In this document: in pieces, positions 21,310-64,000 of the stretch
How the letters are laid out: the number at the start of each line of letters is the position of its first letter
Numbering within the stretch: the stretch's first letter is position 1
Assembly: GCA_964530625.1 (NCBI GenBank)
Contig: CAZHAK010000007.1
Coordinates: forward strand, 21,938-85,937
Length of the DNA stretch: 64,000 nt
Reading direction: 5' to 3'
Origin: an uncultured Alphaproteobacteria bacterium
GTDB lineage: Bacteria; Electryoneota; RPQS01
The notes under the pieces: generated by a model
Database searches by the model: none
Told to the model about the DNA's origin: nothing
Seen by the model: the letters and a program-made list of their open reading frames with translations, nothing else
Position numbers and translations under genes: made by a program

Positions 21310-22002
21310 ATGAAAACGCTCGGGCTTATCGGCGGAACAAGCTGGCATTCCACCGTGGACTACTACAGATTGCTCAACCAGTTGGTAAATCAACGATTGG
21401 GCGGCAAAAACGCCGCGCGGCTCATTCTGCATTCCTTAAACTTCCAGGAATTCTACACGGACAACCAGAATGGGGGTTGGGAGTCCACGGAGCGCTTTCT
21501 GATTCCCATCGCCCGTCAGCTTGAAGAGGCTGGTGCCGAAGGACTCATGCTATGTGCCAACACCCCGCACATGGTCGCGCCGGGAGTGCAGGCCGCGATT
21601 TCGATTCCCTTGATCCACATCGCCGAAGCCACAGCGCGTGAAATTGTCAAGAACGGGCAAAATCGAGTCGCTTTGCTCGGCACCGTTTTCACGATGGAGG
21701 AACCGTTCTATTCAGATATTCTCGCTCAACACGGAATCGAAACTCTCGTCCCTGACAAAGCGACTCGTGACTACATCCATGAAACTATCTTCGATGAAAT
21801 GAGTCTCGGCCAATTCAAGCACGAGACAAAAACTGAGTACCTGCGCATCATGAACACCCTGAAACAGCAGGGCGCGCAAGGGGTGATTCTTGGATGCACC
21901 GAAATTCCGATCTTGGTCAAGCCCGAAGAGTGCCCCATGCCCGCCTACGACACCATCCTCATACATTGCACGGCGGCCGTGGACTTCGCGTTGGCTGACT
22001 AA
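21310..22002 (+). CDS. Aspartate/glutamate racemase family protein (YgeA-like amino-acid racemase)
   Basis: MKTLGLIGGTSWHSTVDYYRLLNQ...RLGG matches the YgeA-type N-terminus. Both catalytic Cys regions are present (LMLCANTPH and ILGCTEIP). The start 21310 is preferred over the ORF-track start 21298. Confidence 0.8.
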   Translation: MKTLGLIGGTSWHSTVDYYRLLNQLVNQRLGGKNAARLILHSLNFQEFYTDNQNGGWESTERFLIPIARQLEEAGAEGLMLCANTPHMVAPGVQAAISIPLIHIAEATAREIVKNGQNRVALLGTVFTMEEPFYSDILAQHGIETLVPDKATRDYIHETIFDEMSLGQFKHETKTEYLRIMNTLKQQGAQGVILGCTEIPILVKPEECPMPAYDTILIHCTAAVDFALAD

Positions 22003-46644: not shown

Positions 46645-49600
46645 TCAAGGCTGCGGCTCTGCCAATACTTGAAAGAATCCCTTCACCGGGTGAACCGGGC
46701 CAATAAACTGAAAAACTGTAAAGGTGTCCGTCGTTATCACGACGGTCGAGAGAAAACTCCCGCTCATGCTCGAGTCCGTCTTGACTGTAAACAGAGCCGG
46801 AACATTGTAGCTCCAATGCAGCCACACGCTGTCCGAATTCGCGCGAATCATCAAGTCCTCGATCGGCGCAAGCGGTTCGCCAAGCTGCGGACCGTGATAC
46901 CCCTGATCGGGTCTGGATATGTCTGCGATGAAATCGATGCGAGTCGTTCCTTCCGGAGCAATCAACAGCGTGTCCCCGGCATTCACACACGGAGATTGCA
47001 CGCTATCTCCCGTCGAAAGCTGCGCCAAATAGAATCCGTGACCCGATCCGCTCACCCACTGGGGATCCAATTGAATGTTGTAGTAGCGGTCACACGGATC
47101 ACTGTTCGAGTTCAAGCTGTCCAATATGCCAATACTCGCCGGCCCCTGATTAGGGGTGTCCGCAAAGAATGCGAAATTCGCGGAGTCATTCTGCGCCACG
47201 CAATTGTAGCGTACGACAGACGTCGATGTCACGAAGAAAAACATCCCGTCGCCGTGATTCTTGGCGATGATATTGTTCTTCACCTGCGGGGAGCCAAAAC
47301 GAATGTAAACTCCCGCGCCATCCACTCCACTGTTTCCTGAAATCGTGTTGAACTGGAGCGTTGCGCTCGCGCTGCCCACCCATATCGCGCCGCCCGCAGG
47401 TGCGCTGTTATTCAAAAGCAAATTATTCCTGACAAGCGTGGGTGACGTGTCCAAATGAATTCCGCCCCCTGTTGCAGAAGCGGAATTCCCTTCAATCCTG
47501 CTATTCAAAATCTGCCCGGTCGCACTCTTTGCCAAAAGTGCCCCGCCTGCCTTCGCAGATCCGCCTGCCATCACGCAATCGTCAATAATCGGATTGGAGT
47601 TCGTTGCCGCACAAACTATTCCGCCCGAGTCGGCAGAACTGCTTGAGAGAAAACATTCCGTAAATACTGGCGAAGACTGTGTCAGATAAACCGCGCCGCC
47701 CTGCAACGCTTTGTGCCGCGAGATCGAGCAATGAACGAACGACGGTGAAACACCGCTTAGCCAAATCGCTCCGCCCTGTGTCCGTGAAGTTGTCAGGGCC
47801 CACGAGTCACTCCAACCGACATAGTCAAAAGCGCTCGCTCCGGCGCTACCGCTCATGGTAATCCCACGCCAGCGACCCGGATTGCTCACGGTGTCTGTAG
47901 CAAACAAAATAGAATCTGAAACGTTTCCTATCGCAGTTACAACCCCCTTAACATCCATGCCGCATGGACCACAGAACAATAACGTGGTTCCCGCCGCAAT
48001 CGTCAAATCTTCCCCCGTATTCACGACGATATCCGCGAAGACTTTCACGGTATCGGGTCCAAGAGTACCTGATTGCGGTCCGAAAATTCCTACTGGCGAA
48101 ACTCCAAACGCACTCTCAATCGCGCCCATATCCGGCAAGCTTAAGAGTGGCAGAGGTCTATTCTCCCCGACAATGTCTTGTGCCAAGGTGTTCCAATTCC
48201 CCGAACCTATGGCAGAGCTGTTCGCACTCAAACTCCAGTCACCGTTTGCCGTATCAGCAAACATCGGATCTGAAAATACATTCAAGAATGTGTCACAGGA
48301 ATCGCCGTTCATGTTTTGAGCCACCGGAACCCCGATAAACTCAGGACCCTGCGCAGCATCGTTCTCCAAATAACCTATTGTTCCCCTTAAAAGTGAATAC
48401 GCAATCCGCGAATTCTTAGACGCACCAAAATACACATTATTGCTCGTCGACTCCGCGATGATGGAATTCTCAATATCTGCAACGGTGGATTCAAGTCGCA
48501 ACCCGCCATTAATGCTGCCGCCGATCGTGCAATGCCTGAGCGCAATCTTACTGCTATTGGCCGTCGCAAGCCCGCCTCCCAACGCCAACGATTTATTCTT
48601 CGTAATCAGGCAGTTCGTGGCCGAAAGTGTGCTCTGATTCGTCGAAATCCCGCCGCCGTTCAAAGTCGAAGTATTCTTCAATATCTCGCATGAGTTAAAC
48701 ACCGCATCCGCAGTTTCCCACAGATGCACACCGCCGCCCTCGTCACTGGCTTGGTTCCAGCGAACCCGACATCCGTTTAACGTCGGCTGTGATTGTCGAA
48801 TGGAGAGGCCGCCGCCGTTGCCCAGACTTGTGTTGCTGTCAAAATCACAATTTGTAAAGATCGGGTGCGCATTGTTTCGCAAGAACACACCACCTCCGTA
48901 AAGCCCTGCCGTGTTCTGCTTCACCACACAATTATTAAATGTCGGTGCGCCGTCTAACGTGACCCAGATTCCCGCGCCTTCGCCGACGCAGATATTGCCG
49001 CGCACTTCACACTCTTCAAACAGCCCGTTAGAGGTCGCTCGGTAGCTGTGAATCCCTCCGCCGTCATCTGCTGACGTATTCATCAAGACCTTGCACCGCA
49101 GCATATGCGGAGAGGATTCCCAAATGTAAACTCCGCCTCCGTCAAACTCAATAGTGTAGTTCCGCTCGATCAAACAATCGTAAATCAGAGGAGAAGAATT
49201 CTCACAAACAATGCCACCCCCATGACCGCGTCCCTGATTGGCTCGCATCGTCGAACTGTCAATCCGCCCTGTGGAATTTTTAAACACCAACCCTCCGCCG
49301 TTTATTCTTGCAAAATTGCTGTCAAACAAACAATGAGACAGTTGTGGTGAACCTCCGCGCAAATAAGCCCCGCCGCCGCTGCCGGAACTTGCGCTATTTT
49401 TGAAGAATCGCGAATACGTAACCACGCTGCCAATGGTATTATTTAGGAACAGCCCCGCGCCTTCGGCACGAGATACATTCCGTTCAAAGAAGCAGGAATC
49501 CATCCACAGAGTTGAGGATGTCACATACACTGCCCCACCGGCGACTTCCGCGCGATTTCTCCTGAAACTCGTGTGTTCAACTCGCAGAACGGATCCCCCA

Positions 49601-50031
49601 CCAACATAAATTGCTCCACCTAAACTATCCGGACCCGTTGGACCGGGAGCCAGCGAATTCTCAAACACCGCATAGCGCACGAAGCTCGAGTCATTGGCGT
49701 TAATTAAACTCAACCCACGCCACTTGGAAGGATTCAGAAGCGTGTCGGTCGTAAAAACTGCCGAGTCCCCTAGCGTTCCACTCACGGCAAGATAGCCATT
49801 GACAGTCAGCGAAAAAGCGCCCGCAAAATATATTCTGACCCCTGAGCCAACCAGCAGACTATCGCTTGCGGCAACACTGAGATTTCCTTGAACAACATAA
49901 GGACTTCCGGCACTCGTCCAACTTCCGCTGACAGGACCCGACACCACAAAGGTCGTATCCGCCCGCGCAGCCAGCACGCTGACCAAGAAACTCAGCGTCC
50001 AAAAAGTGAATGGTTTACCCGGGAATCTCAT
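46645..50031 (-). CDS. Large secreted right-handed parallel beta-helix repeat protein (pectin-lyase-fold), 1128 aa
   Basis: Signal peptide MRFPGKPFTFWTLSFLVSVLAARA. There are dozens of PbH1-type repeats (NxxxxGGGI/GGAI...N....). The C-terminus is FN3-like. Confidence 0.7.
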   Translation of the reverse strand: MRFPGKPFTFWTLSFLVSVLAARADTTFVVSGPVSGSWTSAGSPYVVQGNLSVAASDSLLVGSGVRIYFAGAFSLTVNGYLAVSGTLGDSAVFTTDTLLNPSKWRGLSLINANDSSFVRYAVFENSLAPGPTGPDSLGGAIYVGGGSVLRVEHTSFRRNRAEVAGGAVYVTSSTLWMDSCFFERNVSRAEGAGLFLNNTIGSVVTYSRFFKNSASSGSGGGAYLRGGSPQLSHCLFDSNFARINGGGLVFKNSTGRIDSSTMRANQGRGHGGGIVCENSSPLIYDCLIERNYTIEFDGGGVYIWESSPHMLRCKVLMNTSADDGGGIHSYRATSNGLFEECEVRGNICVGEGAGIWVTLDGAPTFNNCVVKQNTAGLYGGGVFLRNNAHPIFTNCDFDSNTSLGNGGGLSIRQSQPTLNGCRVRWNQASDEGGGVHLWETADAVFNSCEILKNTSTLNGGGISTNQSTLSATNCLITKNKSLALGGGLATANSSKIALRHCTIGGSINGGLRLESTVADIENSIIAESTSNNVYFGASKNSRIAYSLLRGTIGYLENDAAQGPEFIGVPVAQNMNGDSCDTFLNVFSDPMFADTANGDWSLSANSSAIGSGNWNTLAQDIVGENRPLPLLSLPDMGAIESAFGVSPVGIFGPQSGTLGPDTVKVFADIVVNTGEDLTIAAGTTLLFCGPCGMDVKGVVTAIGNVSDSILFATDTVSNPGRWRGITMSGSAGASAFDYVGWSDSWALTTSRTQGGAIWLSGVSPSFVHCSISRHKALQGGAVYLTQSSPVFTECFLSSSSADSGGIVCAATNSNPIIDDCVMAGGSAKAGGALLAKSATGQILNSRIEGNSASATGGGIHLDTSPTLVRNNLLLNNSAPAGGAIWVGSASATLQFNTISGNSGVDGAGVYIRFGSPQVKNNIIAKNHGDGMFFFVTSTSVVRYNCVAQNDSANFAFFADTPNQGPASIGILDSLNSNSDPCDRYYNIQLDPQWVSGSGHGFYLAQLSTGDSVQSPCVNAGDTLLIAPEGTTRIDFIADISRPDQGYHGPQLGEPLAPIEDLMIRANSDSVWLHWSYNVPALFTVKTDSSMSGSFLSTVVITTDTFTVFQFIGPVHPVKGFFQVLAEPQP

Positions 50032-50517: not shown

Positions 50518-50901
50518 ATGCGATGGATGTTTATGCTTGCAATGGTTTCGATGATTGCGATTTCTGCCTTTGCGGAGGAAGAAAAATCAATCGAGGCATT
50601 GCCCACGGACGCCCAAGTTCTGGATCAACAGATGCGTGATTTGTTGATGGAAAGGGAAGCGGTACTGACCCAAATGGCCGAGGACATGAAGACCGCACCC
50701 TTAGACGAGCGTACAGCACGCGACGCTGAGTACGCGGATATGCAAACTCAATACGAGATTCAATTGCTGGAGATGATGGTCGAGTATTATGAAGTGACTG
50801 GAAATGAGCAATTGCGACTTCGTGCCGAAGCAAACCTTGCACAAATGTTGGCGCCCGCTGCAACAGGAACGCCGGAAGCCGTGAATGGGGAGGGACGCTA
50901 A
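50518..50901 (+). CDS. Small secreted acidic alpha-helical protein of unknown function (paralog of the next gene)
   Basis: ATG at 50518 follows a GAAGGAG ribosome-binding site. Signal peptide MRWMFMLAMVSMIAISAFA. The mature protein is about 108 aa and rich in Glu, Gln and Ala. The C-terminal motif is LEMMVEYYEVTGNEQLRLRAEA. Confidence 0.6.
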   Translation: MRWMFMLAMVSMIAISAFAEEEKSIEALPTDAQVLDQQMRDLLMEREAVLTQMAEDMKTAPLDERTARDAEYADMQTQYEIQLLEMMVEYYEVTGNEQLRLRAEANLAQMLAPAATGTPEAVNGEGR

Positions 50902-50902
50902 A

Positions 50903-51385
50903 ATGAAAAAGATTACTTTGATTATTCTTCTCGCCTTGCCTTTGGCTCTTTGGGCAAATCAACCTGTCCAAAAAGGTGAGCGCTACGACGACGCGGTGAT
51001 CGTAGACAAAGCTCCGACCGGAAGCTCAACCGAAGCTCGTGTTGACGACTTGGCGGGCGAACCAGTCACGACTATTCTGCAGCCCGAGTTTCAAGAGCTT
51101 GAAGACCGCTACGCGGAACAGTTGAACCAACTCCGTGCGCAAATTGAGCTGGCCGCGCCGGATCAGCAGGAAGCACTCGAACTTCAAGCCGTTGCGCTAA
51201 AGCAAGAACTTGAAGGGGCCAGACTTGAAACCGTGTTAAACTATGTTCGCGCACAGGGCAACACTGACGCAGAAAAGCGCGTGCTGGAAGCGATTCACAA
51301 CTATCAGAATCCGACCCCGGTACAGAGAGTGAGCGTTGAACGCGATCCGAAAACCGGTGCTGAGAAGAAGGGAGTTTCGCGATGA
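50903..51385 (+). CDS. Small secreted alpha-helical protein of unknown function (paralog of the previous gene)
   Basis: ATG at 50903 follows GGGAGGG. Signal peptide MKKITLIILLALPLALWA. The C-terminal motif LETVLNYVRAQGNTDAEKRVLEA matches the motif in the upstream protein. Its stop overlaps the next start (ATGA). Confidence 0.6.
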   Translation: MKKITLIILLALPLALWANQPVQKGERYDDAVIVDKAPTGSSTEARVDDLAGEPVTTILQPEFQELEDRYAEQLNQLRAQIELAAPDQQEALELQAVALKQELEGARLETVLNYVRAQGNTDAEKRVLEAIHNYQNPTPVQRVSVERDPKTGAEKKGVSR

Positions 51386-54300
51386 ATAGGCTTTTTCTCT
51401 TTCTAGCGATACTTCTTATCACCGTCAGCGCGAATGCCGCAACTGATTCGCAATCGGAGTTTGTGCGCGATGCTCAAAATGAATGGGTGCCCGAGCCCCC
51501 GACACGAGATTTCTCAAAGCGCATTGTCTTTGACAAATATGTGTGGGAAGAAGGAGTTGACCCCAAAGCACGCTTCCTCAATTTGCTCATGGTGAAGTTC
51601 TTCGATGAAGACACTGTGCGCCTGCGTGACGGCCAGTTGACTTCGTTGACGGGACGCGATATTTCTTTTACGAAATCCTTTCTTGCCCGCCATCCCGAAA
51701 TCTCGCCCCGCGTGATTATATGGAACAAAACTGAAGAAAAATACATGGCAAATCTCGCCCGCATCGAGAAGAAGTCGGGCTGGGATTTGGTTGACCTTTT
51801 CAGCTTCTATTGCTTCGAATTGCCGGAAGCACCCGCTGACGCGCAAGCGTTGATCAGCGAGATTCTCGATGCTCCCGAGGTCGAAACCGCTTATTACGAG
51901 CCGATTCCCGTGGATTTCTTGTGTCAAGATCTCGGGAACACGACACCAAACTTCCGCCCCAACCAAACATATCACGATGCTGCCCCTGTTGGTGTCGACT
52001 TAGATTGGGTGTGGGCAGAACATATTGATGATGTCGTGGACGGACCCGGCACAGGTCGTTGGACTGGAATCTTTGAGCGCGGACTCCAAACCACACACGA
52101 AGACTTCACCTTAGCTGAAGTGGCCACAGCTGGCACGCCTGATTCAGACAACGATCACGGAACGGCTGTGACAGGGTTGCTGGGCGCCTGCGATGATAAT
52201 GGGGTTGGTTGTATTGGTTTTATGGCCGATCAGAGAATGAGGCTCTATCAACGGAATTCAGGCTCTTACGGTTCCACGGCTGATATTTACAATCTAGCCA
52301 ATGGGCAACTGGTTTCTGGTGAAGTCACGAACTCATCATGGGGCTACACGGCAAATCCACTCCCTCCGGGACAAACATGTCCTTGCAATCCAGGTCAAAA
52401 CGGCTCAGTACCCATTGAGTATTCAGCAAGTGTTAAGGCAGAAGTTCAGGCGGGCGTTGCAGATGGTATTCACTACTTTCTGTCCGCAGGGAATGGATGC
52501 ACGAACCTTGATGACGCGACTTTTGGAACAACCTTCAGAAATTCCACAGACACAGGATCAAACTACGTCTCCGCAATCCAGTCTGCGGCTGGCCACAATG
52601 CATCCTGCTTTACGTGCTTTGGCGAGCGCTGTGACCTGAACGCATGGGGCGATGGGAGTTTTACGCTGGGCTATAATTCCGACGGTACTCCGTTTGTACC
52701 GGCATCCCAGGACGAGTGGTACACGAACGGATTCAATGGAACATCGAACGCCTCCCCGACCGTTGCCGGCTGTGCAGGCGTCATTCACAACGTGGTCAAC
52801 TATTATACCGGATCGACGCTGTCCACTTCGTTGATGCGAAACTATCTCAATAACTACGGTACCGCACCAGGCACGACTCCGGGGAATATCGGTGTCATGC
52901 CGAATCTCTTCGGAATCATGTCGGCTAACCTGAATCCCGATTTCCGCACTGGTTGGACCTGGTATATGGTGCCGAGAAGTACAGGAGGTGCGACAGCGGA
53001 CAACTGTCTTATCACCGCGAACTTAAGCCCCGACCCGTCACTTACCTATTGGAATGCCGCTGCGGAGAACGAAGCGGTTATCGGCTGGGGAACTCCGGCG
53101 GCGTACAGAATTTATTTAGACGACGTGTGGGAAATCGGCTGGGTGGACGGAAACGACACTTTGCATGCGCAAGAAAGAACTTACGGCATTAATGCTAGTA
53201 CTACCGTTCGCGGTGGTCGCCACTTTGTTCGCCTGACCGTTGATCCACTTGATCAAGTTGATGAATGGGTTGAAACCGACAATAGCGAACACAATCAATG
53301 GGTCTGGAACCCCCGCCAATTTACGAACGGCCAGATCCTAACCTTGTCTTCGCCTCCGATAAAGTATGCTACAGACCAGCTCTCCGAGGGTTTCTCATAT
53401 CCCAATGTGGATGGCTATGGTGGCGAAAACTTTCAATTCGATGGATACTGGGATATCATGATGGTGATGGCCCAATCTTCAACTGCAGATTACGACGCAC
53501 GTATCTACAGCGAAGATGTCACCTCGACAAACGGATTTGACGACACCGAAGCCTCCTCTGCGTACGTTTCGTTCAGCGATTTCGTAGGCGTCAACAACAA
53601 TGTCGCCGGTCAGTCTCAAGAATTGATTGCCGCTGTGCTTAATTATGACGGTGAATCTTCACAGCATCGTGTGGAGTGCGGAACTTCCACAATCCTTAGC
53701 CCCAGCACGCCCGGCATCGGCCGCACCTCCTATGGCTCGCATAGCTTAACGTCCACGGAGCTCTTTGATGTCTGGGAATTCTATGTTAACGAACTTGTTC
53801 CTTACAACATTGAAGTTGACGTCACCTCCGGAAGCGCAAACGTTGTCGTTTCTATTTACGGACCGGACGACACCTTCTTCAGCAGAGGCAACTTCAATGC
53901 GCAGTCAAACTCCGGCGGTGCGGGCGAAGACGAAATGATCTCCTGCTGGACACCCAACGCCATAGGCTGGCACGCCATCGTCGTGCACAAGCATAACTAC
54001 CTCGATTGGGATGAAACGGCTAACTTCAATCTTTACGTAGGTAAAGCAGGATTTGACTTCGTTCACACTTTAGGTACGGGTTGGTCGCACAGTTTGGTTG
54101 TAAGACAGGTTGCTGGTGGGCAGCCTGCAGTTCTGCCTGCATCTTTGACGGGCAACATTGCGACGAACTATGTCAACATCATGGCTTTGAATCAAGGCTG
54201 TACTGCCGCTGTTGCGTCTTTGGATGACCGCGTCTTTCGTGACGGACCGGCCGTTGGAACCTTTGCCAACTGGAACGGGGCAATTGTGCCGGGAGGCATG

Positions 54301-55569
54301 GCCTTCGGTTCAAATCGCAATATCGGCACTGTCCCCGGTGGCCGTCACCAAATCGGCAACGTCATTGATATTCTTAATGAAGGGCCGGAATGGGACGAAA
54401 CTAACAATCGCTACGACGAACAATTCGTTTGGACGCCTGCTCTGTTGACCAACAATGTGATGTTCAACTCGCTAAACACGGCCCCGAACTGGCGCGATTT
54501 CGATGCAACCTTGTTCTTCCCGGACTACAACGTGGACGGCTTCCGTTTTACAGGCGGTGGATTCTGGAGCGGCGTTGGCATGACTCCCAATAACACCGTT
54601 GAGGACGTATATAACTTATTCCTCTACGACCCGGCAACGTCTTCTACATCCGGGTTCGGAACTCGCTTGGTGAACTCCTGGTCAGCTGGCGCTGACGTCG
54701 AATGGGTCATTGAGAACGGTAGCCAAATCGCCAATGAAACCTTTGATGTCGGCGTTCACAACAACACCGCCTGGCCGAATGACACGTCTCTCTCCACCTA
54801 CCGTCTGCAGCAATCCAACAGAATTCAAGACCTGAATGTTGGACAATTTCACGGCGAATTCCCCTTCCCCAGCACTCAGATTATCAACGTGTTTGATCTC
54901 AATCTGACCTCTGGAGTGAGTACGGATATTCTCTTGGATAACCGTGGAACAGGTGATCTTGGATTTGCAATCTACAATCCGAGCATGCTCTATGGAAGTC
55001 GCACGACGTACACCCAATTGATTAACTTGAATGGCGACGCCGCGGATGAAGCGACAACATTTGTCCCGACTCAAACGGGCCGACATGGATTTGTGGTCTT
55101 TAAGAATGATCGCAGTGATCTGGGAGCAAATCCTTATGCGCTGGTCATCGGTGAACGTACACCAAGAGCACCGGACTCACTGGTCATCAAGTGGGCCTCA
55201 AGCTCTCCGATTTCCGTGGAATTGACGTGGGCGCCTGTGACCCAAGACATTTTCGGGCAACCAATCACGGTCGACCGTTATGACATTTACTTCACGTATA
55301 ACCTTAACGCGCTCTATCCGGCGGGTTGGGGTTTCGGTGGTTCAACCTTAGATAACACGCAAGTGCCGATTTTCCCGAATGATGCGGAGTTCGGCTTCAA
55401 GTGTCTCTTCTTGGCTGTTGACACCGATGGCTTGATCGTCGGAGGATCTGACCTGCCCGAAGGAGCCACGTCGGTCATAGGTCAAAGAGCGGAAGATGTC
55501 CGCAATGCTGCAGGATGGCACGAGAATATTCTTGTCCCACAGTCAGAACGCGTGAATTCGATTCGCTAA
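51382..55569 (+). CDS. Giant secreted kexin/subtilisin-like (S8) protein with three CARDB-like repeat modules and a C-terminal FN3-like domain; Glu sits at the predicted catalytic Asp position
   Basis: Signal peptide MNRLFLFLAILLITVSANA. His motif DNDHGTAVTGLLGA. Oxyanion YFLSAGNGCTN. Ser motif NGTSNASPTVAGCAGV. The Asp-box position reads GTGRWTGIFERG (Glu instead of Asp). Repeats occur at VDEWVETDNSEHNQWVW, LDWDETANFNLYV and GPEWDETNNRYDEQFVW. Confidence 0.65.
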   Translation: MNRLFLFLAILLITVSANAATDSQSEFVRDAQNEWVPEPPTRDFSKRIVFDKYVWEEGVDPKARFLNLLMVKFFDEDTVRLRDGQLTSLTGRDISFTKSFLARHPEISPRVIIWNKTEEKYMANLARIEKKSGWDLVDLFSFYCFELPEAPADAQALISEILDAPEVETAYYEPIPVDFLCQDLGNTTPNFRPNQTYHDAAPVGVDLDWVWAEHIDDVVDGPGTGRWTGIFERGLQTTHEDFTLAEVATAGTPDSDNDHGTAVTGLLGACDDNGVGCIGFMADQRMRLYQRNSGSYGSTADIYNLANGQLVSGEVTNSSWGYTANPLPPGQTCPCNPGQNGSVPIEYSASVKAEVQAGVADGIHYFLSAGNGCTNLDDATFGTTFRNSTDTGSNYVSAIQSAAGHNASCFTCFGERCDLNAWGDGSFTLGYNSDGTPFVPASQDEWYTNGFNGTSNASPTVAGCAGVIHNVVNYYTGSTLSTSLMRNYLNNYGTAPGTTPGNIGVMPNLFGIMSANLNPDFRTGWTWYMVPRSTGGATADNCLITANLSPDPSLTYWNAAAENEAVIGWGTPAAYRIYLDDVWEIGWVDGNDTLHAQERTYGINASTTVRGGRHFVRLTVDPLDQVDEWVETDNSEHNQWVWNPRQFTNGQILTLSSPPIKYATDQLSEGFSYPNVDGYGGENFQFDGYWDIMMVMAQSSTADYDARIYSEDVTSTNGFDDTEASSAYVSFSDFVGVNNNVAGQSQELIAAVLNYDGESSQHRVECGTSTILSPSTPGIGRTSYGSHSLTSTELFDVWEFYVNELVPYNIEVDVTSGSANVVVSIYGPDDTFFSRGNFNAQSNSGGAGEDEMISCWTPNAIGWHAIVVHKHNYLDWDETANFNLYVGKAGFDFVHTLGTGWSHSLVVRQVAGGQPAVLPASLTGNIATNYVNIMALNQGCTAAVASLDDRVFRDGPAVGTFANWNGAIVPGGMAFGSNRNIGTVPGGRHQIGNVIDILNEGPEWDETNNRYDEQFVWTPALLTNNVMFNSLNTAPNWRDFDATLFFPDYNVDGFRFTGGGFWSGVGMTPNNTVEDVYNLFLYDPATSSTSGFGTRLVNSWSAGADVEWVIENGSQIANETFDVGVHNNTAWPNDTSLSTYRLQQSNRIQDLNVGQFHGEFPFPSTQIINVFDLNLTSGVSTDILLDNRGTGDLGFAIYNPSMLYGSRTTYTQLINLNGDAADEATTFVPTQTGRHGFVVFKNDRSDLGANPYALVIGERTPRAPDSLVIKWASSSPISVELTWAPVTQDIFGQPITVDRYDIYFTYNLNALYPAGWGFGGSTLDNTQVPIFPNDAEFGFKCLFLAVDTDGLIVGGSDLPEGATSVIGQRAEDVRNAAGWHENILVPQSERVNSIR

Positions 55570-55748: not shown

Positions 55749-58700
55749 ATGCTCGACCTGTTTCCGTCACGCTTCACCCTTAGATCAATGTTTCGGACTA
55801 TTTACACGCTCGCAACTCTACTCATCTGCCATTCCAGCCTCTGGGCGGCGAAAGACCTCCCGATGCATGGGTTCCTGGCCTACTGGCCTGCGGCGCTTGG
55901 ATTGATGGCTGCGGTGGGTTTGGCAGGGCTGTGTATCCTGACTTTTCGGAGGGCACGTAAGACCGACGAACACGATCCTGTGCTGGATTGGCGATCCCTT
56001 GCAGAAAACATCGCCGAAGCGGTTATTCTTCTGAAGGCCGATGGAACGGTGCTGTTTGTAAACCGCTGGAGCAGCGACCGTGATGTTATGATCGGTATGC
56101 CCATCGAAGAATTTATTCACGGCGATGATCGAGTTCGTTGGAAAGAGTACTACTTTCTTCGAGCAGGCAGAGCCTCCGTTTGTAAAACTGATGTTTTCAA
56201 AATGACGCTGCCCGAAGCCACCACCGCCTATTGGGAAGTGCGCATTTCGCCGCTCTCTAATGGGCCGCACGGAGCAGATATCATGCTCTGTGCCCGCGAT
56301 GTCACAGATTCCCGTTTGAAAGAAACAACTAAAGACGTTCTCCACAAAGTTACTTTTGCCTCGACTCACGTTGAGTCCTTGGAATCATTTGTCAGATACA
56401 TCGAACTGCAACTTGCCCGATTGGTGGATACAAGTAACTTCTACCTTGCTCTCTACGACAACGAGACTGATACGTACTTGAAATTCCTGTCCAGAGATCG
56501 TTCGGAGCCGCTTACAGCAGAAATCGAGCGGGTGAGCCTCAAGGGAGGATTGACTGACTATGTTCGCAAGACCGGCAAACCGGTGCTGATGAACAATCAC
56601 AATCGAGCGGAATTGATCGCTAATGGCAGCTTGCGAACAATTGGAGAATCCGCCGCTTGCTGGCTCGGGGTGCCCTTGCAAACACGCGATGACGTACTTG
56701 GTGTGCTCGTCGTGCAATCGTATAACAATCTGAATTGCTACACCAACTCTGATGTCGAACTCTTGTCGATCGTCGCGGGTTCGATAGGACGAGCGTTCGA
56801 GCGAAAATCTGCCCAAGCCGAGTTAAAGCAACGGGAAGAAAAACTCAGGCTCTTCACTGAGCGCACGCCCGCGCTGCTCTGGTCACAAGACGAAACAGGG
56901 AGAATTACCTACGCAACCGGTGCGGCGTTGTCAGCGATTGGACTTGGTCCCGACTCACTGGTTGGAAATACTCTTTGCCAGACCGTGCAGTTCAAAGACG
57001 AAGACTTCAGACAACAATTCGAAACGTTGGTGCCGGGCGCACCGCAAAGTTTCCAATTCATATTGCGTGAACGCACCTTTGAGGCATGGATCGAGCGGAC
57101 AAACAGTGCTGATGGAAAATTTGCGGGCATGACCGGCGTAGCGTTGGATGTGACTGAGAAGGACCGCGCGGGGACTGAACTGCGCAGGTTTTTTGAATTG
57201 TCCGGAGACTTGTTTGCCGTTATTGATTTGCAAGGCGTACTTGTACGCTGCAATGATGCGTACTTAAATGCCACAGGATATACGCGTGAGGAGAGAATCG
57301 GTCAGCCATCCCTCACCCTGGTTCATCCTGATGACTTTGCCTTAGCTGAGTGGGCTATGAAAAGACTGTCAGCAGGGGAGCCGGTTATCGGACTCGAAGC
57401 GCGGATTGTGTGCAAAGACGGAGGATGTAAATGGATATCCTGGAGCTCCGTTCTTGATCCGCATGACAACCTGATTTATACTTCAGGTAAAGATGTCACG
57501 AGTCGCCGTGAAATCGAGAATGCGCTTCACGAGCGTGAAGAACAACTTTGCCTCTTTGTCGAAAATTCTCCCGCGGCACTTGCCATGTTTGATCGTGACA
57601 TGAACTATATGATTGTTAGTGAACGATGGCGCACCGATTACAATCTTGGAAGCACTGACTTTGTCGGAAGATCGCATTACGAGGTCTTCCCGGAAATCAG
57701 CGATGAATGGAAAGTGATTCATAAACGTTGCTTAAACGGTGCCACTGAACAATGCTCACGCGATCCCTTCCTGCGGAATGACGGAACAACCGATTGGGTC
57801 CGATGGGAAATTCGCCCTTGGTATCGTGCCGACGGCACTATCGGCGGAATCATGATGTTCACTGAAGTCATCACCGACGAAGTCAATGCAGAGTTGGAAC
57901 TTTCACGTTCCAGAAATCTTGCCCGTCAAATTGTCGAGTCATCGCTCGACTCCGTTATTGCTATTGACGGCAAAGGGAATGTTACCGAGTGGAATCCACA
58001 GGCAGTGAAAGACTTTGGCTACACGCACGACGAAGCGATCGGCAAACCACTGCACGACCTGATTGTCCCCAAACATCTGGCCGAAGCCCACGTTCGAGGC
58101 CTTGAAAAGTACGCGCGTTCGGGTCACGCCCTGATCCTGAATCGTATCCTGAATTTACCCGCGATACGCAAGGGCGGGGAGGAGTTCCCTGTCGAAATTT
58201 CGATCTGTCCCATTCAAGTCGGTGACGAGACTCATTTCTCGGCATTTATCCGCGATATCAGTGAACGGCTTGAAAAGGAAAAAGAACTCACCGAAAGCCG
58301 CGCTCGGCTCAAAGAAGCCCAAAGAATCGCCGGTCTTGGATTCTGGGAATGGTTTGCCGAAAAAGATGAGATGTTTGTCAGCGAAGAGAAACTAACACTC
58401 TACGACAGACCTGATTTGAAACTGCCGATCACCTTTGCGCGGTTTCTTGAGATCGTGCACCCGGATGACCGACAAATGTTCATCGATACCAATCAGGCGC
58501 TCGCGTCAGGGCAGAATTCTTGCGAACTCCAATACAGAATCGTAAGACCGACGGGCGAAATCCGATATGCTTACAGCCAGGGTGAAACCGCACGAGACGA
58601 GCACGGTAACATCCTGAAGCTATTCGGCACCACGCTCGACGTCACAGACAGAGTTCTGAACGAACAAATGCTGCGGGACAGCGAACAGAGACTGGCAATG

Positions 58701-60587
58701 GCGCTCGAAGGTTCAACCGACGGCTTCTGGGATTGGAATATCGTTTCTGGCGATTGCTTTTTTAGCCCAAGAATCGTAGAGTGGCTCGGCTATGACGCAG
58801 GTGAGTTCATTCATAAAATGAGCTTCTGGCAAGAGATTGTTCATCCGGATTCTCTGCCTGTGGTCAATCGCGCTTTTGCTGAACACGTCGCGAGTAGAAC
58901 TGCGCACTATGAAGTCGAAGGACGAATACGCACGAAATCCGGGGAATGGATTTGGGTGTTATCGCGAGGGAAGGTCGTGCTGTGGGATGAACACGGAGCA
59001 CCACTGCGTGCAGCAGGAACATGGACAAACATCACAGACCGAAAAGTTATCGAGGCACGTGCGCTTCAGCTTGGAAGAATTCTGGACAATTCCGTCAATG
59101 AAGTCTACATCGTTGACATAGACTCTCTGAGAATTCTGGAAACCAATCAGAGGGCACGAATCAACACCGGCTACTCGCTCGAAGACTACCAGACTCTGAC
59201 CATTCCACGGCTAACGGCAAATTGGAGAGAAAGCGAACTTCCAAGGCTGCTTCATCCTCTGCTGAACTACAAAATGGAAGTTGTGCGGACAAAGGCCGAT
59301 CATCGCCGAAGTGACGGGACAACGTATCCGTTTGAAGCTACGCTCCAGCTCATGGAATGGCAAGACAAAACTGTGCTTGTCTTCATTGGCTCCGACGCAA
59401 CCGAAAAGGCCAAAGCCGAGCAAAAACTGGAAAGACTGGATGCGCGAATCAGACAAAATCAACGTCTCGAAACGATCGGCACGCTGGCTGGCGGTATCGC
59501 CCACGACTTTAACAATATCCTTACTCCAATACTGGGCTATGCGGATATCGCCGCCAGTGAACTGGATCAAGAATCGACGACGCGAAAAGATCTCGAACAT
59601 GTGATTCAGGCTGCCTACCGGGCCAAAGAGCTCGTCCAGCAAATTCTTGCGTTCAGCACGCAAGGTGACCAAGCTCGCCATCATCTGAAAATCGACCTTG
59701 TCGTAAAGGAAACTCTAAAGTTGTTGCGGGTCGGCATCCCGACAAACATTGATTTAGTCCAAAGCATCGAAAACGTCGGGTATGTTACGTCGGATCCCAG
59801 CATGATCAATCAGATCCTCGTGAATCTCTGCGCCAATGCCGGGCAGGCGATCGGTGAAACCGGCGGTGTCATTGATGTTTCACTCACAAAAGTTGAACTG
59901 AAAGAGTATGACGAACGTGAGCGCCTGAAACTGCCCGAAAGAGCCTACGCAAAACTGTGCGTGCGAGACTCCGGCAAAGGAATGGATGGATACACCATGG
60001 GACGAATGTTTGAACCATTCTTCACAACGGAAGATGTCGGCAAGGGAACTGGACTCGGACTTTCCGTTGTGCATGGCATCGTGAAATCGCACGGAGGGGC
60101 AATAGATGTTGAGTCCGTACCCGATCAAGGTACACGAATTTGCGTCTATCTACCCGTAGAATTCGATGACGACGGCGCAAATCTCCCGCGCACGTTTGAG
60201 GACCCCTCGGGAAGTGAGCACATCCTACTCTGCGATGATGACGATTCTATTCTGATGCTCGGAAAGCAGATGCTTGAGAACTATGGATACTCTGTAACCG
60301 CGACCCAAGACCCTGTCGCAGCTCTGGCCTTGCTGGCGCAAGCAGACCCCCCTGTCGCGGCTATTGTCGTGGATGATCAAATGCCCATCCTCTCAGGCCG
60401 TGATGTCGCATTAGCGGCGCACGATTACAACTCGAGGGTCCCGGTCATCCTGCTGTCTGCGGGGCAAAGCCGTACGGAGAGCGCAGAATGCTTTGCTGCC
60501 GTGCTTTCGAAGCCGGTCGGAGCAGGTGATCTTGCACATTCAGTTAGAAAATGTATTGACGAATCCAAAATGGAGACTGCAACATAA
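55749..60587 (+). CDS. Hybrid sensor histidine kinase: N-terminal TM region, multiple PAS/PAC and GAF domains, HisKA, HATPase_c, and a C-terminal receiver domain
   Basis: Two N-terminal hydrophobic segments. There are many PAS-like repeats over 1612 aa. The HisKA H-box is GGIAHDFNNILTPILGYADI. The ATPase G-boxes are GKGTGLGLSVVHGIV. The receiver region is HILLCDDDDSILML...VVDDQMP...SKPV. Confidence 0.8.
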   Translation: MLDLFPSRFTLRSMFRTIYTLATLLICHSSLWAAKDLPMHGFLAYWPAALGLMAAVGLAGLCILTFRRARKTDEHDPVLDWRSLAENIAEAVILLKADGTVLFVNRWSSDRDVMIGMPIEEFIHGDDRVRWKEYYFLRAGRASVCKTDVFKMTLPEATTAYWEVRISPLSNGPHGADIMLCARDVTDSRLKETTKDVLHKVTFASTHVESLESFVRYIELQLARLVDTSNFYLALYDNETDTYLKFLSRDRSEPLTAEIERVSLKGGLTDYVRKTGKPVLMNNHNRAELIANGSLRTIGESAACWLGVPLQTRDDVLGVLVVQSYNNLNCYTNSDVELLSIVAGSIGRAFERKSAQAELKQREEKLRLFTERTPALLWSQDETGRITYATGAALSAIGLGPDSLVGNTLCQTVQFKDEDFRQQFETLVPGAPQSFQFILRERTFEAWIERTNSADGKFAGMTGVALDVTEKDRAGTELRRFFELSGDLFAVIDLQGVLVRCNDAYLNATGYTREERIGQPSLTLVHPDDFALAEWAMKRLSAGEPVIGLEARIVCKDGGCKWISWSSVLDPHDNLIYTSGKDVTSRREIENALHEREEQLCLFVENSPAALAMFDRDMNYMIVSERWRTDYNLGSTDFVGRSHYEVFPEISDEWKVIHKRCLNGATEQCSRDPFLRNDGTTDWVRWEIRPWYRADGTIGGIMMFTEVITDEVNAELELSRSRNLARQIVESSLDSVIAIDGKGNVTEWNPQAVKDFGYTHDEAIGKPLHDLIVPKHLAEAHVRGLEKYARSGHALILNRILNLPAIRKGGEEFPVEISICPIQVGDETHFSAFIRDISERLEKEKELTESRARLKEAQRIAGLGFWEWFAEKDEMFVSEEKLTLYDRPDLKLPITFARFLEIVHPDDRQMFIDTNQALASGQNSCELQYRIVRPTGEIRYAYSQGETARDEHGNILKLFGTTLDVTDRVLNEQMLRDSEQRLAMALEGSTDGFWDWNIVSGDCFFSPRIVEWLGYDAGEFIHKMSFWQEIVHPDSLPVVNRAFAEHVASRTAHYEVEGRIRTKSGEWIWVLSRGKVVLWDEHGAPLRAAGTWTNITDRKVIEARALQLGRILDNSVNEVYIVDIDSLRILETNQRARINTGYSLEDYQTLTIPRLTANWRESELPRLLHPLLNYKMEVVRTKADHRRSDGTTYPFEATLQLMEWQDKTVLVFIGSDATEKAKAEQKLERLDARIRQNQRLETIGTLAGGIAHDFNNILTPILGYADIAASELDQESTTRKDLEHVIQAAYRAKELVQQILAFSTQGDQARHHLKIDLVVKETLKLLRVGIPTNIDLVQSIENVGYVTSDPSMINQILVNLCANAGQAIGETGGVIDVSLTKVELKEYDERERLKLPERAYAKLCVRDSGKGMDGYTMGRMFEPFFTTEDVGKGTGLGLSVVHGIVKSHGGAIDVESVPDQGTRICVYLPVEFDDDGANLPRTFEDPSGSEHILLCDDDDSILMLGKQMLENYGYSVTATQDPVAALALLAQADPPVAAIVVDDQMPILSGRDVALAAHDYNSRVPVILLSAGQSRTESAECFAAVLSKPVGAGDLAHSVRKCIDESKMETAT

Positions 60588-61854: not shown

Positions 61855-64000
61855 ATGAAACTATGGTCTAAGATTCTGTGCCTGGTTGTTGCCCTGTTCG
61901 CGGTCACCACACTTCACGCTGCCGAGTTCTCGGACATGCTCGAGTTAGAGCTTGAAAAAGCGAAGGGTAGTGACTTCGTCAGCGCAATTATCACGCTGCC
62001 GAGTGCGATTGATATTCGGTCGCTCGACTTTGCGCTTCACACTCGCAAAGCAACCTTGGCGGAACGTCACAGTGAAGTTATTGGCGCGCTGAAATATAAC
62101 GCGTCGCTAAATCAGCCTGCCTATCGCGCCGAACTCGAAGAAGAAATCGAAAAAGGAAATGTCGAAGGCTATACCGCCTACTGGATTGAAAATCTCTTCG
62201 TGATTTCTGCTACAAAAGATTACATTGAGTCGCTGCGCAACCGCGGTGACATCGAGTTTGCCGACGAGAACTTCAAACCCGAGTTGATTGAGCCGATTGT
62301 CTCGTCCTCAGGCGACGAACGTCCGCCGCGAATAAATCCGCTCGACAACGAAACCACCACAGCCGGTCAAAATGCCATCGGTGCAACCCGCGTCAATCGC
62401 GAACTTGGCATTACGGGTCAAGGCGTGCTTGTAGCAAACTGTGACACCGGAGTTGACGGCAATCATCCTGCGCTCGCTTCGCGCTGGAGAGGAAACTTTG
62501 CGCCTGCGGCAGAATGCTGGCGCGACGCTCTCGGATCTGCACCCAACTTCCCCTCGGATGGAAACAATCACGGCACGCACGTCATGGGTACGATTACGGG
62601 CCGCGCGATCTCCGGCAATGACACCAATACTGTGGGTAGTGCGCCCAACGCGCTGTGGATTGCGACCAACTCAATCAATCAGGGCGTCGGTGCCGCATTC
62701 GATAACGACATCATCGCCGACTACCAGTGGTTTGCAGATCCCGACGGCGACGTCCAAACCTTGGATGATGTCCCGGATTGCATTCAGAATTCGTGGGGAG
62801 TTCATTCTGGCTTTAGCGGGTACATTCAATGCGACAGCCGCTGGAACACCGTAATTCTAAACTGTGAAGCGGCTGGTCCCGTGATCTCATGGTCAGCCGG
62901 TAACGAATCTGGCTCCGGCCATCGAGCGCCCGCGATCTTTTCCATAAATGCTTACCAAATCTTCTCTGTGGGCGCGGTGGACGCACAAGATGGCTTGCCG
63001 CCCTATCCGATTGCAAGTTTTTCGAGCCTTGGACCCACACCTTGTGCTCCCTTTGTTCCTGACAACATTAAGCCAGAAATTTCCGCGCCCGGTGTGAATG
63101 TCTATTCGTCCGTCCCCGGTGGCGGCTATAGTAGTTCCTATTCCGGCACCTCTATGGCAGGACCGCATGTTGCAGGCGTCGTCGCGTTGATGCGCGAAGC
63201 CTGTCCCGATTGCGATCACATCACGATCAAGGATGCGATCATGCAAACCGCGCTTGACCAAGGTCCGGCAGGGCAGGACAATACATACGGCTATGGCGTG
63301 ATCCAAGCCTATGAAGCCGTCATCGCTGTCTCCGCACTCGGCCGCGTAGCTGGTGTCGTTACGGACGGAGTTGATCCTATTAACGGTGCGCGCGTGAAAA
63401 TTCTTTCCGGACCAAACCAAGTTTACACTGATGCTGGTGGTCTGTATTACCTCGCCTTATCTGACGGAACCTACGACCTTGAGTTTTCGAAAGTCGGTTT
63501 CATTTCTGACACAACGTATGGCGTGGTCGTGACCGTTGGAGATACCGTCTTTGTCAATGCTGAACTCACTGCGCTGACACCAGTCGTTTTCGTGAACGAA
63601 GATTTCGAAGCCGGCGCTCCCGGTTGGACACACGATGCTCCCGGCGGCTGGGTAGATAATTGGCACATCTCGACAGAGCGCGCAAACTCCGGTACACATT
63701 CGTACAAGTGCGGCGACGAGGGAGTGGGAACATATGCAAGTTTCGATGACGCTCGCTTGACGTCCCCTGTTTTGTCAAACATCCCTGCTTCGGCTTATCT
63801 GAATTTCGATCTCCAGATCGAATCCGAACTTTCGGGAGCTTTCCCGGATTCAGCTTATGACGGCGGATTCATAGAGCTCTCCGTTGATGCAGGCCCGTGG
63901 ACCCACGTTTCCCCGCTGCAAGGCTACACCAAAACCTTCCGATACTCTGCAGGTGGAGGAAATCCCTATACCGGGCCGGTTCCGGGGGTTGCGTGTTTTG
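61855..64000 (+). CDS. Secreted propeptide-S8 subtilisin-like peptidase, the third paralog (3' end beyond the window)
   Basis: ATG at 61855 follows AAAGGTG. Signal peptide MKLWSKILCLVVALFAVTTLHA. The propeptide GYTAYWIENLFVISA is shared with its paralogs. Motifs: VLVANCDTGVDGNH, HGTHVMGTITG, GTSMAGPHVAGVVALM. There is no stop before 64000. Confidence 0.85.
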   Translation, partial: MKLWSKILCLVVALFAVTTLHAAEFSDMLELELEKAKGSDFVSAIITLPSAIDIRSLDFALHTRKATLAERHSEVIGALKYNASLNQPAYRAELEEEIEKGNVEGYTAYWIENLFVISATKDYIESLRNRGDIEFADENFKPELIEPIVSSSGDERPPRINPLDNETTTAGQNAIGATRVNRELGITGQGVLVANCDTGVDGNHPALASRWRGNFAPAAECWRDALGSAPNFPSDGNNHGTHVMGTITGRAISGNDTNTVGSAPNALWIATNSINQGVGAAFDNDIIADYQWFADPDGDVQTLDDVPDCIQNSWGVHSGFSGYIQCDSRWNTVILNCEAAGPVISWSAGNESGSGHRAPAIFSINAYQIFSVGAVDAQDGLPPYPIASFSSLGPTPCAPFVPDNIKPEISAPGVNVYSSVPGGGYSSSYSGTSMAGPHVAGVVALMREACPDCDHITIKDAIMQTALDQGPAGQDNTYGYGVIQAYEAVIAVSALGRVAGVVTDGVDPINGARVKILSGPNQVYTDAGGLYYLALSDGTYDLEFSKVGFISDTTYGVVVTVGDTVFVNAELTALTPVVFVNEDFEAGAPGWTHDAPGGWVDNWHISTERANSGTHSYKCGDEGVGTYASFDDARLTSPVLSNIPASAYLNFDLQIESELSGAFPDSAYDGGFIELSVDAGPWTHVSPLQGYTKTFRYSAGGGNPYTGPVPGVACF

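Follow-up and report, generated by a model that had tools for sequence, protein, structure and literature searches.

The 64,000-nucleotide stretch of DNA analysed here (hereafter the window; positions 21,938 to 85,937 of the forward strand of contig CAZHAK010000007.1, assembly GCA_964530625.1) carries a gene for a large subtilase (peptidase family S8) in which a glutamate, Glu232, stands where subtilisin has its catalytic Asp32, as in subtilases of the Glu-His-Ser (E-H-S) subgroup. The gene is the third of a closely spaced series: two small open reading frames (ORFs) precede it, the stop codon of the second overlaps the ATG of the protease as ATGA, and a Shine-Dalgarno-like AAGGGAG lies 8-14 nt 5' of this ATG. 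The features of the gene up to the end of the catalytic domain are as follows.

51382-55569, + strand: complete protease ORF, 1395 amino acids plus stop (open reading frame listing)
51382-51438, + strand: predicted Sec signal peptide, residues 1-19, MNRLFLFLAILLITVSANA|A (read from the sequence by inspection)
51499-51915, + strand: propeptide-like alpha/beta region, residues ~40-178, kept across the E-H-S clade
51919-52926, + strand: Peptidase S8 catalytic domain, residues ~180-515, subtilisin (S8A)-like (PF00082, profiles against the PDB, Foldseek)
52075-52077, + strand: Glu232 (GAG), at the catalytic Asp32 position (profile alignments, conservation)
52156-52158, + strand: His259, catalytic His, equivalent to His64 (alignments, conservation)
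52357-52422, + strand: clade-specific insertion, residues 326-347, P-x-P-x-G-Q-x-C-x-C-N-P-x-Q-N-G-x-V-x-x-E-Y
52492-52494, + strand: Asn371, oxyanion-hole Asn, equivalent to Asn155 (alignments, conservation)
52744-52746, + strand: Ser455, nucleophile, equivalent to Ser221 (alignments, conservation)

A preliminary description of this DNA, made from the sequence alone, had given the same reading frame and reported intact His, oxyanion Asn and Ser motifs, and we find all of these as described: DHGTAVTG begins at residue 258, SAGNGC at residue 368 and GTSNASP at residue 453, downstream of HIDDVVDG (residue 214) and GTGRWTGIFERG (residue 223).

The catalytic domain is recognised by Pfam S8 (PF00082) at 48.9 bits (cut-off 21.8) over residues 250-488, and the same profile matches 27 of 34 aligned homologs, which were drawn from a set of 36 full-length relatives with identities down to 30%. 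An NCBIfam scan of the protein returned mycosin alone, at 18.8 bits and far under its cut-off. An AlphaFold2 (AF2) model that includes the catalytic domain (predicted local distance difference test, pLDDT, 84.9) was compared with solved structures using Foldseek, and matched subtilisins Carlsberg and BPN' with E=1e-14 and a target-normalised template modelling (TM) score of 0.77. The matches listed for both profile searches of the PDB, together with the 50 best Foldseek matches, comprise subtilisins BPN', Carlsberg and DY, thermitase, AK.1 protease, AprV2/BprV and StmPr1, together with intracellular subtilisins, fervidolysin and site-1 protease. Residues ~40-178 show alternating beta and alpha elements in the AF2 model, which Foldseek aligns at length with pro-subtilisin E (3whi, over 467 columns) and with fervidolysin (1r6v, over 525 columns); on the strength of these two features, the model supports reading this region as a putative subtilisin-type propeptide.

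The residue at the catalytic-Asp position

When the protein was searched against the PDB as a single sequence with phmmer, only the His region was aligned and the Asp box was not reached. The profile of 34 homologs places 'tstwtgifErGlqttHEd' opposite subtilisin residues 24-41, 'SNVKVAVIDSGIDSSHPDL', and pairs Glu232 with Asp32, His259 with His64, Asn371 with Asn155 and Ser455 with Ser221 of subtilisins BPN' and DY. Its conserved blocks fall where expected for a subtilase, with 'ndHGt' on His64, 'aagNG' on Asn155, 'GtSgasP' on Ser221, and 'gifErG...HEd' paired with 'VAVIDSG...HPDL'. A more diverse wider-clade profile built from 46 sequences aligns with solved subtilases over the entire catalytic domain in one continuous alignment (E=3.5e-23), and its 'kiidvEyg' stands opposite 'VVAVLDTG', so that the Glu faces the catalytic Asp. 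The seven residues that separate Glu232 from the HED motif equal the spacing between Asp32 and His39 in 'DSGIDSSHPDL'. The strand that carries Glu232, GIFERG, holds no Asp. The other stretch that might have supplied a catalytic Asp, HIDDVVDG, was rejected, as it is unconserved and lies before strand 1 in the wider-clade alignment; this alternative, which the preliminary description had named as fatal to its assignment, did not apply. The two profile alignments to solved subtilisins thus confirm, at the level of sequence, its claim that Glu232 occupies the catalytic-Asp position.

To place this residue in a wider context, residues 1-520 were searched with phmmer against 1.84 billion representatives of 50%-identity clusters. 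This search gave 3277 matches at E<=1e-3, most of them spanning residue ~60 to 515, and 176 matches at E<=1e-30; the E-H-S clade is large, with at least 176 such clusters matching the domain at the stricter threshold. Conservation was counted in 186 sequences aligned to the family hidden Markov model (HMM), namely the 36 members of the protein's own family and 150 representatives of 50%-identity clusters. Of all these sequences, 180 have Glu at position 232 and four have Asp: Glu is present in 36/36 family members and in 144/148 distant representatives, far beyond what chance would give, and the remaining four representatives carry Asp. His259, Asn371 and Ser455 are universal wherever aligned, and Glu232, His239, Glu240, His259, Asn371 and Ser455 are invariant in the 34 aligned homologs. 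As Glu232 is near-universal in both the family and the clade, it represents a conserved clade trait and not the decay of an active site.

The wider clade shares the motif [IV][IV]-D-[VI]-E-x-G-W-x-x-x-H-E-D-L, in which a second acid stands two residues before the Glu. This Asp at -2 (residue 230; residues 230-232 are encoded at 52069-52077) is found in 139/148 distant representatives. The family of the window's protease differs from most of the clade in having lost it: 34/36 members have Ile, Val or Leu at position -2, giving the family motif I/V-F-E, and Asp remains only in P0035 and P0036, the two most divergent members. The Asp at -2 was therefore rejected as the true acid for this family. 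Three of the sequences with Asp at position 232 (P0067, P0094 and P0118) have Val at -2. Because position 232 is always acidic and position -2 is variable, position 232 is the one that holds the indispensable acid, and the family carries what its sequences indicate is a 'minimal' version of the motif, in which the Asp at -2 is dispensable and the Glu is not.

Other acidic residues near the active site are also well conserved. Glu240 is found in 36/36 family members and 144/148 representatives, and Asp241 in 33/36 and 145/148, respectively. Glu346, within the clade-specific insertion, is present in 36/36 family members and in all 149 of the representatives that have a residue there (149/149), and is replaced by Asp, Ser or Gly in 4/16 additional clade matches. 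The core of this insertion reads C-x-C-N...Q...V-P-x-E-[YW], with Cys333 and Cys335 largely conserved, and could form a disulfide, a metal site or an element of the substrate pocket.

At residue 319, the equivalent of subtilisin Ser125, the wider clade has Glu and the protein's own family has Ser, in a part of the alignment that is uncertain. Residue 319 appears to co-vary with the Asp at -2 (87 sequences with D/E/E versus 33 with [IV]/E/S), a suggestive pattern on which, given the uncertain alignment, we do not rely.

Tandem duplication of a C-terminal module

Downstream of the catalytic domain, the protein consists of a duplicated three-domain unit followed by a C-terminal region.

52927-54060, + strand: repeat unit 1, residues 516-893 (hhalign, HMM cross-matches, AF2)
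52930-53316, + strand: CARDB-like domain 1, residues ~517-645, approximate boundaries
53317-53718, + strand: middle domain 1, beta-sandwich/jelly-roll-like, residues ~646-779, all-beta in the model
53719-54051, + strand: PPC/collagen-binding-like domain 1, residues ~780-890, holding WDETAN at 876-881
54061-55167, + strand: repeat unit 2, residues 894-1262 (hhalign, HMM cross-matches, Pfam mapping), with a CARDB-like domain at residues ~896-1020, a middle domain at ~1021-1150 and a PPC-like domain at ~1151-1259
55168-55566, + strand: C-terminal region, residues 1263-1395

The duplication was apparent when family sub-alignments were compared with one another. Using hhalign, columns 515-893 and 894-1262 matched with a probability of 100% (E=8.5e-53, 354 columns, 23% identity), and the HMM of each unit matched the opposite unit of the protein, with E-values of 5.5e-51 and 7.1e-44. 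Self-BLASTP of the protein gave no off-diagonal match at E<=10, so a simple dot-plot, as proposed in the preliminary description, would be weak and the duplication is detected by profile methods only. That description was right that a tandem duplication exists, and the motif pairs it quoted are correctly matched, at an offset of 375 residues, but the unit is ~370 rather than ~270 amino acids long, and its bounds of 500-790 and 800-1080 give way to 516-893 and 894-1262 by profile comparison.

The domains within each unit were assigned from homologs and from the model. In Pfam and NCBIfam scans of the protein alone, no CARDB or PPC match was obtained, and for CARDB (PF07705) this holds at E<=1. 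Among the 34 homologs, Pfam found CARDB in 19 (E<=0.1) and PPC in nine; the CARDB matches map to residues 573-636 and 933-1011 of the window's protein and the PPC matches to residues 796-862 and 1168-1239, and the CARDB match of homolog P0026 reaches 26.5 bits against a cut-off of 22.7. The CARDB-like domains, which are Ig domains, have the CARDB fold, and the PPC-like domains agree with PPC (PF04151) in both profile match and fold. The AF2 model of repeat unit 1 has a pLDDT of 93.9 and a predicted TM score (pTM) of 0.90, and the middle domain of ~130 residues matches known folds weakly (the SID1 ectodomain, sugar-binding domains of GH2 enzymes, and HA3). Three CARDB-like repeats had been proposed from three similar motifs; CARDB-like domains do exist, but there are two, one per unit. 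WVETDN (residues 629-634) and WDETNN (1004-1009) lie inside them, while WDETAN (876-881) falls within PPC-like domain 1, at its C-terminal end, aligns with 'SDLGANPYAL' of unit 2 and is not conserved as a motif.

For the last 133 residues, neither Pfam nor the PDB yielded a sequence match (best E=0.32); they comprise a conserved part of ~100 amino acids, Ig/Fn3-like by pattern only, and then a variable tail. NCBIfam and Pfam scans of the protein, and the C-terminal alignment, gave no type IX secretion system sorting domain (TIGR04183/PF18962).

The same module occurs once in the distant E-H-S proteins P0046, P0067 and P0088 and twice in P0041, P0042, P0043, P0050, P0056 and P0078, and the combination of CARDB, beta-sandwich and PPC domains is thus a duplicable unit within a subclade. 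PPC/collagen-binding and CARDB domains are also found in other multidomain proteases of bacteria and archaea, such as the clostridial collagenases ColG and ColH, and PF1109 has a CARDB domain (3idu). The window's protein differs from these proteases in that its catalytic domain is S8 and not M9, and in that its three domains form a single ~370-residue unit, modelled as rigid, that is duplicated in tandem.

P0067 (946 amino acids), which has a single CARDB/beta-sandwich/PPC module, is one of the four representatives with Asp at position 232, and is a natural case of Glu/Asp interchange within the module-bearing subclade.

Catalytic function and relation to other proteases

The 2007 abstract of Siezen, Renckens and Boekhorst in Proteins (67:681) reportedly mentions a subset of subtilases in which an equivalent Glu replaces the catalytic Asp. 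Most bacterial subtilases belong to the Asp-His-Ser (D-H-S) family, and the E-H-S subgroup was defined in 2007 (Siezen 2007, as cited in PMC3937732, from which we take the definition used here). The subgroup is also represented in the Prokaryotic Subtilase Database. The S8 domain of the window's protease keeps the His and the Ser and has Glu at the catalytic-Asp position, and so falls within this definition. One E-H-S subtilase, SprP (PA1242) of P. aeruginosa, has a predicted triad of E262/H299/S499 and cleaves both skim milk and Suc-AAPF-pNA, and its S499A mutant is inactive (PMC3937732). The Glu-His-Ser triad, which the preliminary description had presented as unusual, is therefore not new, because the subgroup was defined in 2007. 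The value of the present observations is incremental for the same reason, Glu-for-Asp having been catalogued then and one member having been shown to be active, and the only genuinely new points are a conserved cassette of small ORFs (see below) and the loss of the Asp at -2. To these the family adds an accessory architecture, the duplicated CARDB/beta-sandwich/PPC unit, and it also brings the conserved pair of small partner genes. No solved E-H-S structure was found: the PDB matches with displayed alignments have Asp and the others are conventional subtilisin-type enzymes. Working out, structurally or mechanistically, how the subtilisin fold makes use of Glu in the place of Asp would be a genuine advance, if a modest one.

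Comparison with characterized enzymes brings out both what is shared and what is particular. SprP and the window's protease have in common the S8 fold, a Glu in place of the catalytic Asp, intact His and Ser, and a signal peptide followed by a region without a Pfam family before the S8 domain (a 'DUF' in SprP, propeptide-like here). They differ in that SprP has 590 amino acids and a short C-terminal extension, whereas the window's protease has 1395 amino acids with the duplicated three-domain module. A Pseudomonas protein, WP_215000308.1 (450 amino acids), has C-A-D-I-E-N-G...H-E-D-L together with the His, Asn and Ser and matches the clade profile at E=8.7e-83, which places it, as judged from its sequence, in the clade of the window's protease. 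Classical subtilisins and thermitases (S8A; BPN'/Carlsberg, StmPr1 9i67) resemble the window's protease in catalytic fold, in having a propeptide, and in the motifs that hold the His, Asn and Ser (HGT, GNG and GTSxAxP, respectively) and the order of these motifs, but differ from it at Asp32, in having HPD where it has HED, and by a sequence identity of only ~20%; classical subtilisins also lack its Cys-rich insertion (C-x-C-N...Q...V-P-x-E-Y), which lies between the Ser125-equivalent strand and the next helix. The catalytic machinery of sedolisins (S53) likewise includes a Glu, in a fold that resembles that of subtilisin. In these enzymes, however, Glu takes over from His as the general base, and the oxyanion Asn is replaced by Asp (Ser-Glu-Asp); since the window's protease retains His259 and Asn371, it is not a sedolisin.

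We consider it very probable that the gene encodes an active, secreted, multidomain E-H-S subtilase, and infer its catalytic activity, its autoprocessing and a binding role for its C-terminal part from the features described above. Following removal of the Sec signal peptide, the propeptide-like domain would fold the catalytic domain, inhibit it transiently and then be cut off autocatalytically, as is general in subtilases. The mature enzyme would then cleave peptide bonds with Ser455 as the nucleophile and His259 as the general base, with Asn371 stabilising the oxyanion and the carboxylate of Glu232 orienting and polarising His259. A precedent for this role of Glu is offered by the Ser-His-Glu triads of alpha/beta-hydrolases such as acetylcholinesterase. 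The ~880 C-terminal residues, made up of the two rigid ~370-residue modules and a further small beta domain, are non-catalytic, and the modules would most likely bind the cell surface or a substrate that is insoluble or polymeric. The enzyme would probably serve to degrade protein outside the cells of an uncultured, Calditrichaeota-like bacterium of the Fibrobacteres-Chlorobi-Bacteroidetes (FCB) group.

Several observations weigh against this assignment. The Pfam S8 match begins at profile position 47 (residue 250) and leaves the Asp box unaligned; the Pfam check proposed in the preliminary description therefore yields a significant S8 match but does not settle the Asp position, and the assignment of Glu232 rests on the family-profile alignments. 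The putative propeptide has no Pfam I9 match in a scan of the protein. SprP is neither among the 150 representatives, as judged by its triad numbering, nor among the profile-search matches. Finally, the role of Glu in SprP is a prediction, S499A being the sole mutant made (PMC3937732).

The preliminary description had offered a Glu-His-Ser protease, a pseudo-protease and a binding protein as alternatives, and the conserved residues and the activity of SprP favour the first of these. Were the Asp-to-Glu change to have disabled catalysis, leaving a protein that acts in binding or adhesion through its CARDB and PPC modules, the absence of the canonical Asp from the profile alignments would be accounted for, as would the ~63% of the protein that consists of non-catalytic beta-sandwich domains related to binding modules. 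We nonetheless regard a pseudo-protease as unlikely. In pseudoenzymes it is usually the nucleophile or the base that has been lost, and here all four residues of the catalytic machinery are invariant over a very divergent clade, a strictness of conservation that argues strongly against a pseudo-enzyme. That Asp occasionally takes position 232 in clade members points to the upkeep of an acidic function at this site, the propeptide-like domain has been retained, and at least SprP among E-H-S subtilases is active.

An enzyme could also be active without Glu232 belonging to its triad, if His259 were supported by Glu240, Asp241 or Glu346, or if a Ser-His dyad sufficed and Glu232 were structural. 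Glu240 and Glu346 are indeed about as conserved as Glu232, Asp241 is slightly less so, and we found no mutagenesis test of the triad Glu for any E-H-S enzyme. However, two independent profile alignments put Glu232 exactly at the Asp32 position, at the end of strand 1, and position 232 admits only Glu or Asp, while the replacements of Glu346 in additional clade members include Ser and Gly. The HED motif that contains Glu240 and Asp241 aligns with HPD of subtilisin, which is outside the active site, its Asp41 being a calcium-site ligand. On this evidence, we hold a role for another acid, or a dyad, to be very unlikely. It is scarcely credible that the protein belongs with the kexin-like (S8B) proprotein convertases and cuts specific precursors at basic sites. 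This was the impression of the preliminary description alone, and agrees with the large beta-rich extension after the catalytic domain; that extension, however, starts with a CARDB-like domain, and no P domain (PF01483) was found in the protein (E<=1) or in the 34 homologs (E<=0.1). Kexin and furin are likewise absent from the listed matches of both profile searches against the PDB and from the top 50 Foldseek matches, which are of subtilisin, thermitase, AprV2 or StmPr1 types. An active E-H-S subtilase of the subtilisin/thermitase type, with Glu232 in its triad, remains the explanation that we favour.

The upstream small-ORF cassette and neighbouring genes

Two small ORFs lie directly 5' of the protease gene.

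50518-50901, + strand: small ORF A, 127 amino acids, signal-peptide-bearing, helical, paralog of ORF B
50885-51385, + strand: small ORF B, 160-166 amino acids (start ambiguous), its stop overlapping the protease ATG

ORFs A and B are paralogs with signal-peptide-like N-termini and a common LE..L.Y....G[ND] motif. Neither has a Pfam, NCBIfam or PDB family, and the searches gave chance-level helical matches only. A profile of the small ORFs finds the pair 5' of the protease in the window (the same as L001-3) and at the homologous loci L004/L009, L005, L007, L008, L010, L012, L014 and L015, with coordinates within the respective sequences of 5083-6004 (L004), 5055-6004 (L005) and 5065-6004 (L007). 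L006 has one copy, the truncated L011 is partial, and at L013 no small ORF was detected by the profile. The second small ORF overlaps the protease start as ATGA in the window, L004, L005 and L007. This operon-like cassette is thus kept in ~10 independent loci, down to ~38% protease identity, and the outer flanks differ between loci.

At least 24 metagenomic contigs carry an identical protease. Its closest named relatives are encoded in metagenome-assembled genomes (MAGs) of Calditrichaeota, and other full-length relatives in MAGs labelled Zixibacteria, Delongbacteria, Bacteroidia and, in one case, Alphaproteobacteria.

The arrangement suggests that the protease gene is co-transcribed, and probably translationally coupled, with the genes for two small secreted helical paralogs, which may serve it as a dedicated pair of partners, chaperones or inhibitors. 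Acting in trans, and specifically in this E-H-S branch, they could work as folding chaperones, as inhibitors or as anchors. It is a tentative possibility that the protease and the two small proteins make up a dedicated, undescribed three-component system, and that this branch represents a natural 'minimal' Glu-His-Ser active site.

A second subtilase gene begins downstream, at 61855-64000 (+), and is cut by the window end. It matches Pfam S8 over its full length (E=4.5e-39), contains a CarboxypepD_reg domain and has a normal Asp box, CDTGVDGNHPAL, with C-D-T-G-V-D-G-N-H-P-A-L. As this second subtilase is canonical, one locus encodes both a D-H-S and an E-H-S subtilase. Between the two subtilase genes, 55749-60587 (+) encodes a 1612-amino-acid GAF/multi-PAS hybrid histidine kinase, followed by a response regulator. 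On the other side, 46645-50031 (-) encodes a secreted right-handed beta-helix repeat protein of 1128 amino acids (Beta_helix, NosD and Chlam_PMP matches), with an M14 carboxypeptidase further upstream. The beta-helix, kinase and M14 flanks are not conserved at homologous loci. Across the window, GC skew is negative at ~1-26 kb and 32-50 kb and near zero at 26-32 kb and beyond 50 kb, and the change at ~46-61 kb coincides with a switch of coding strand.

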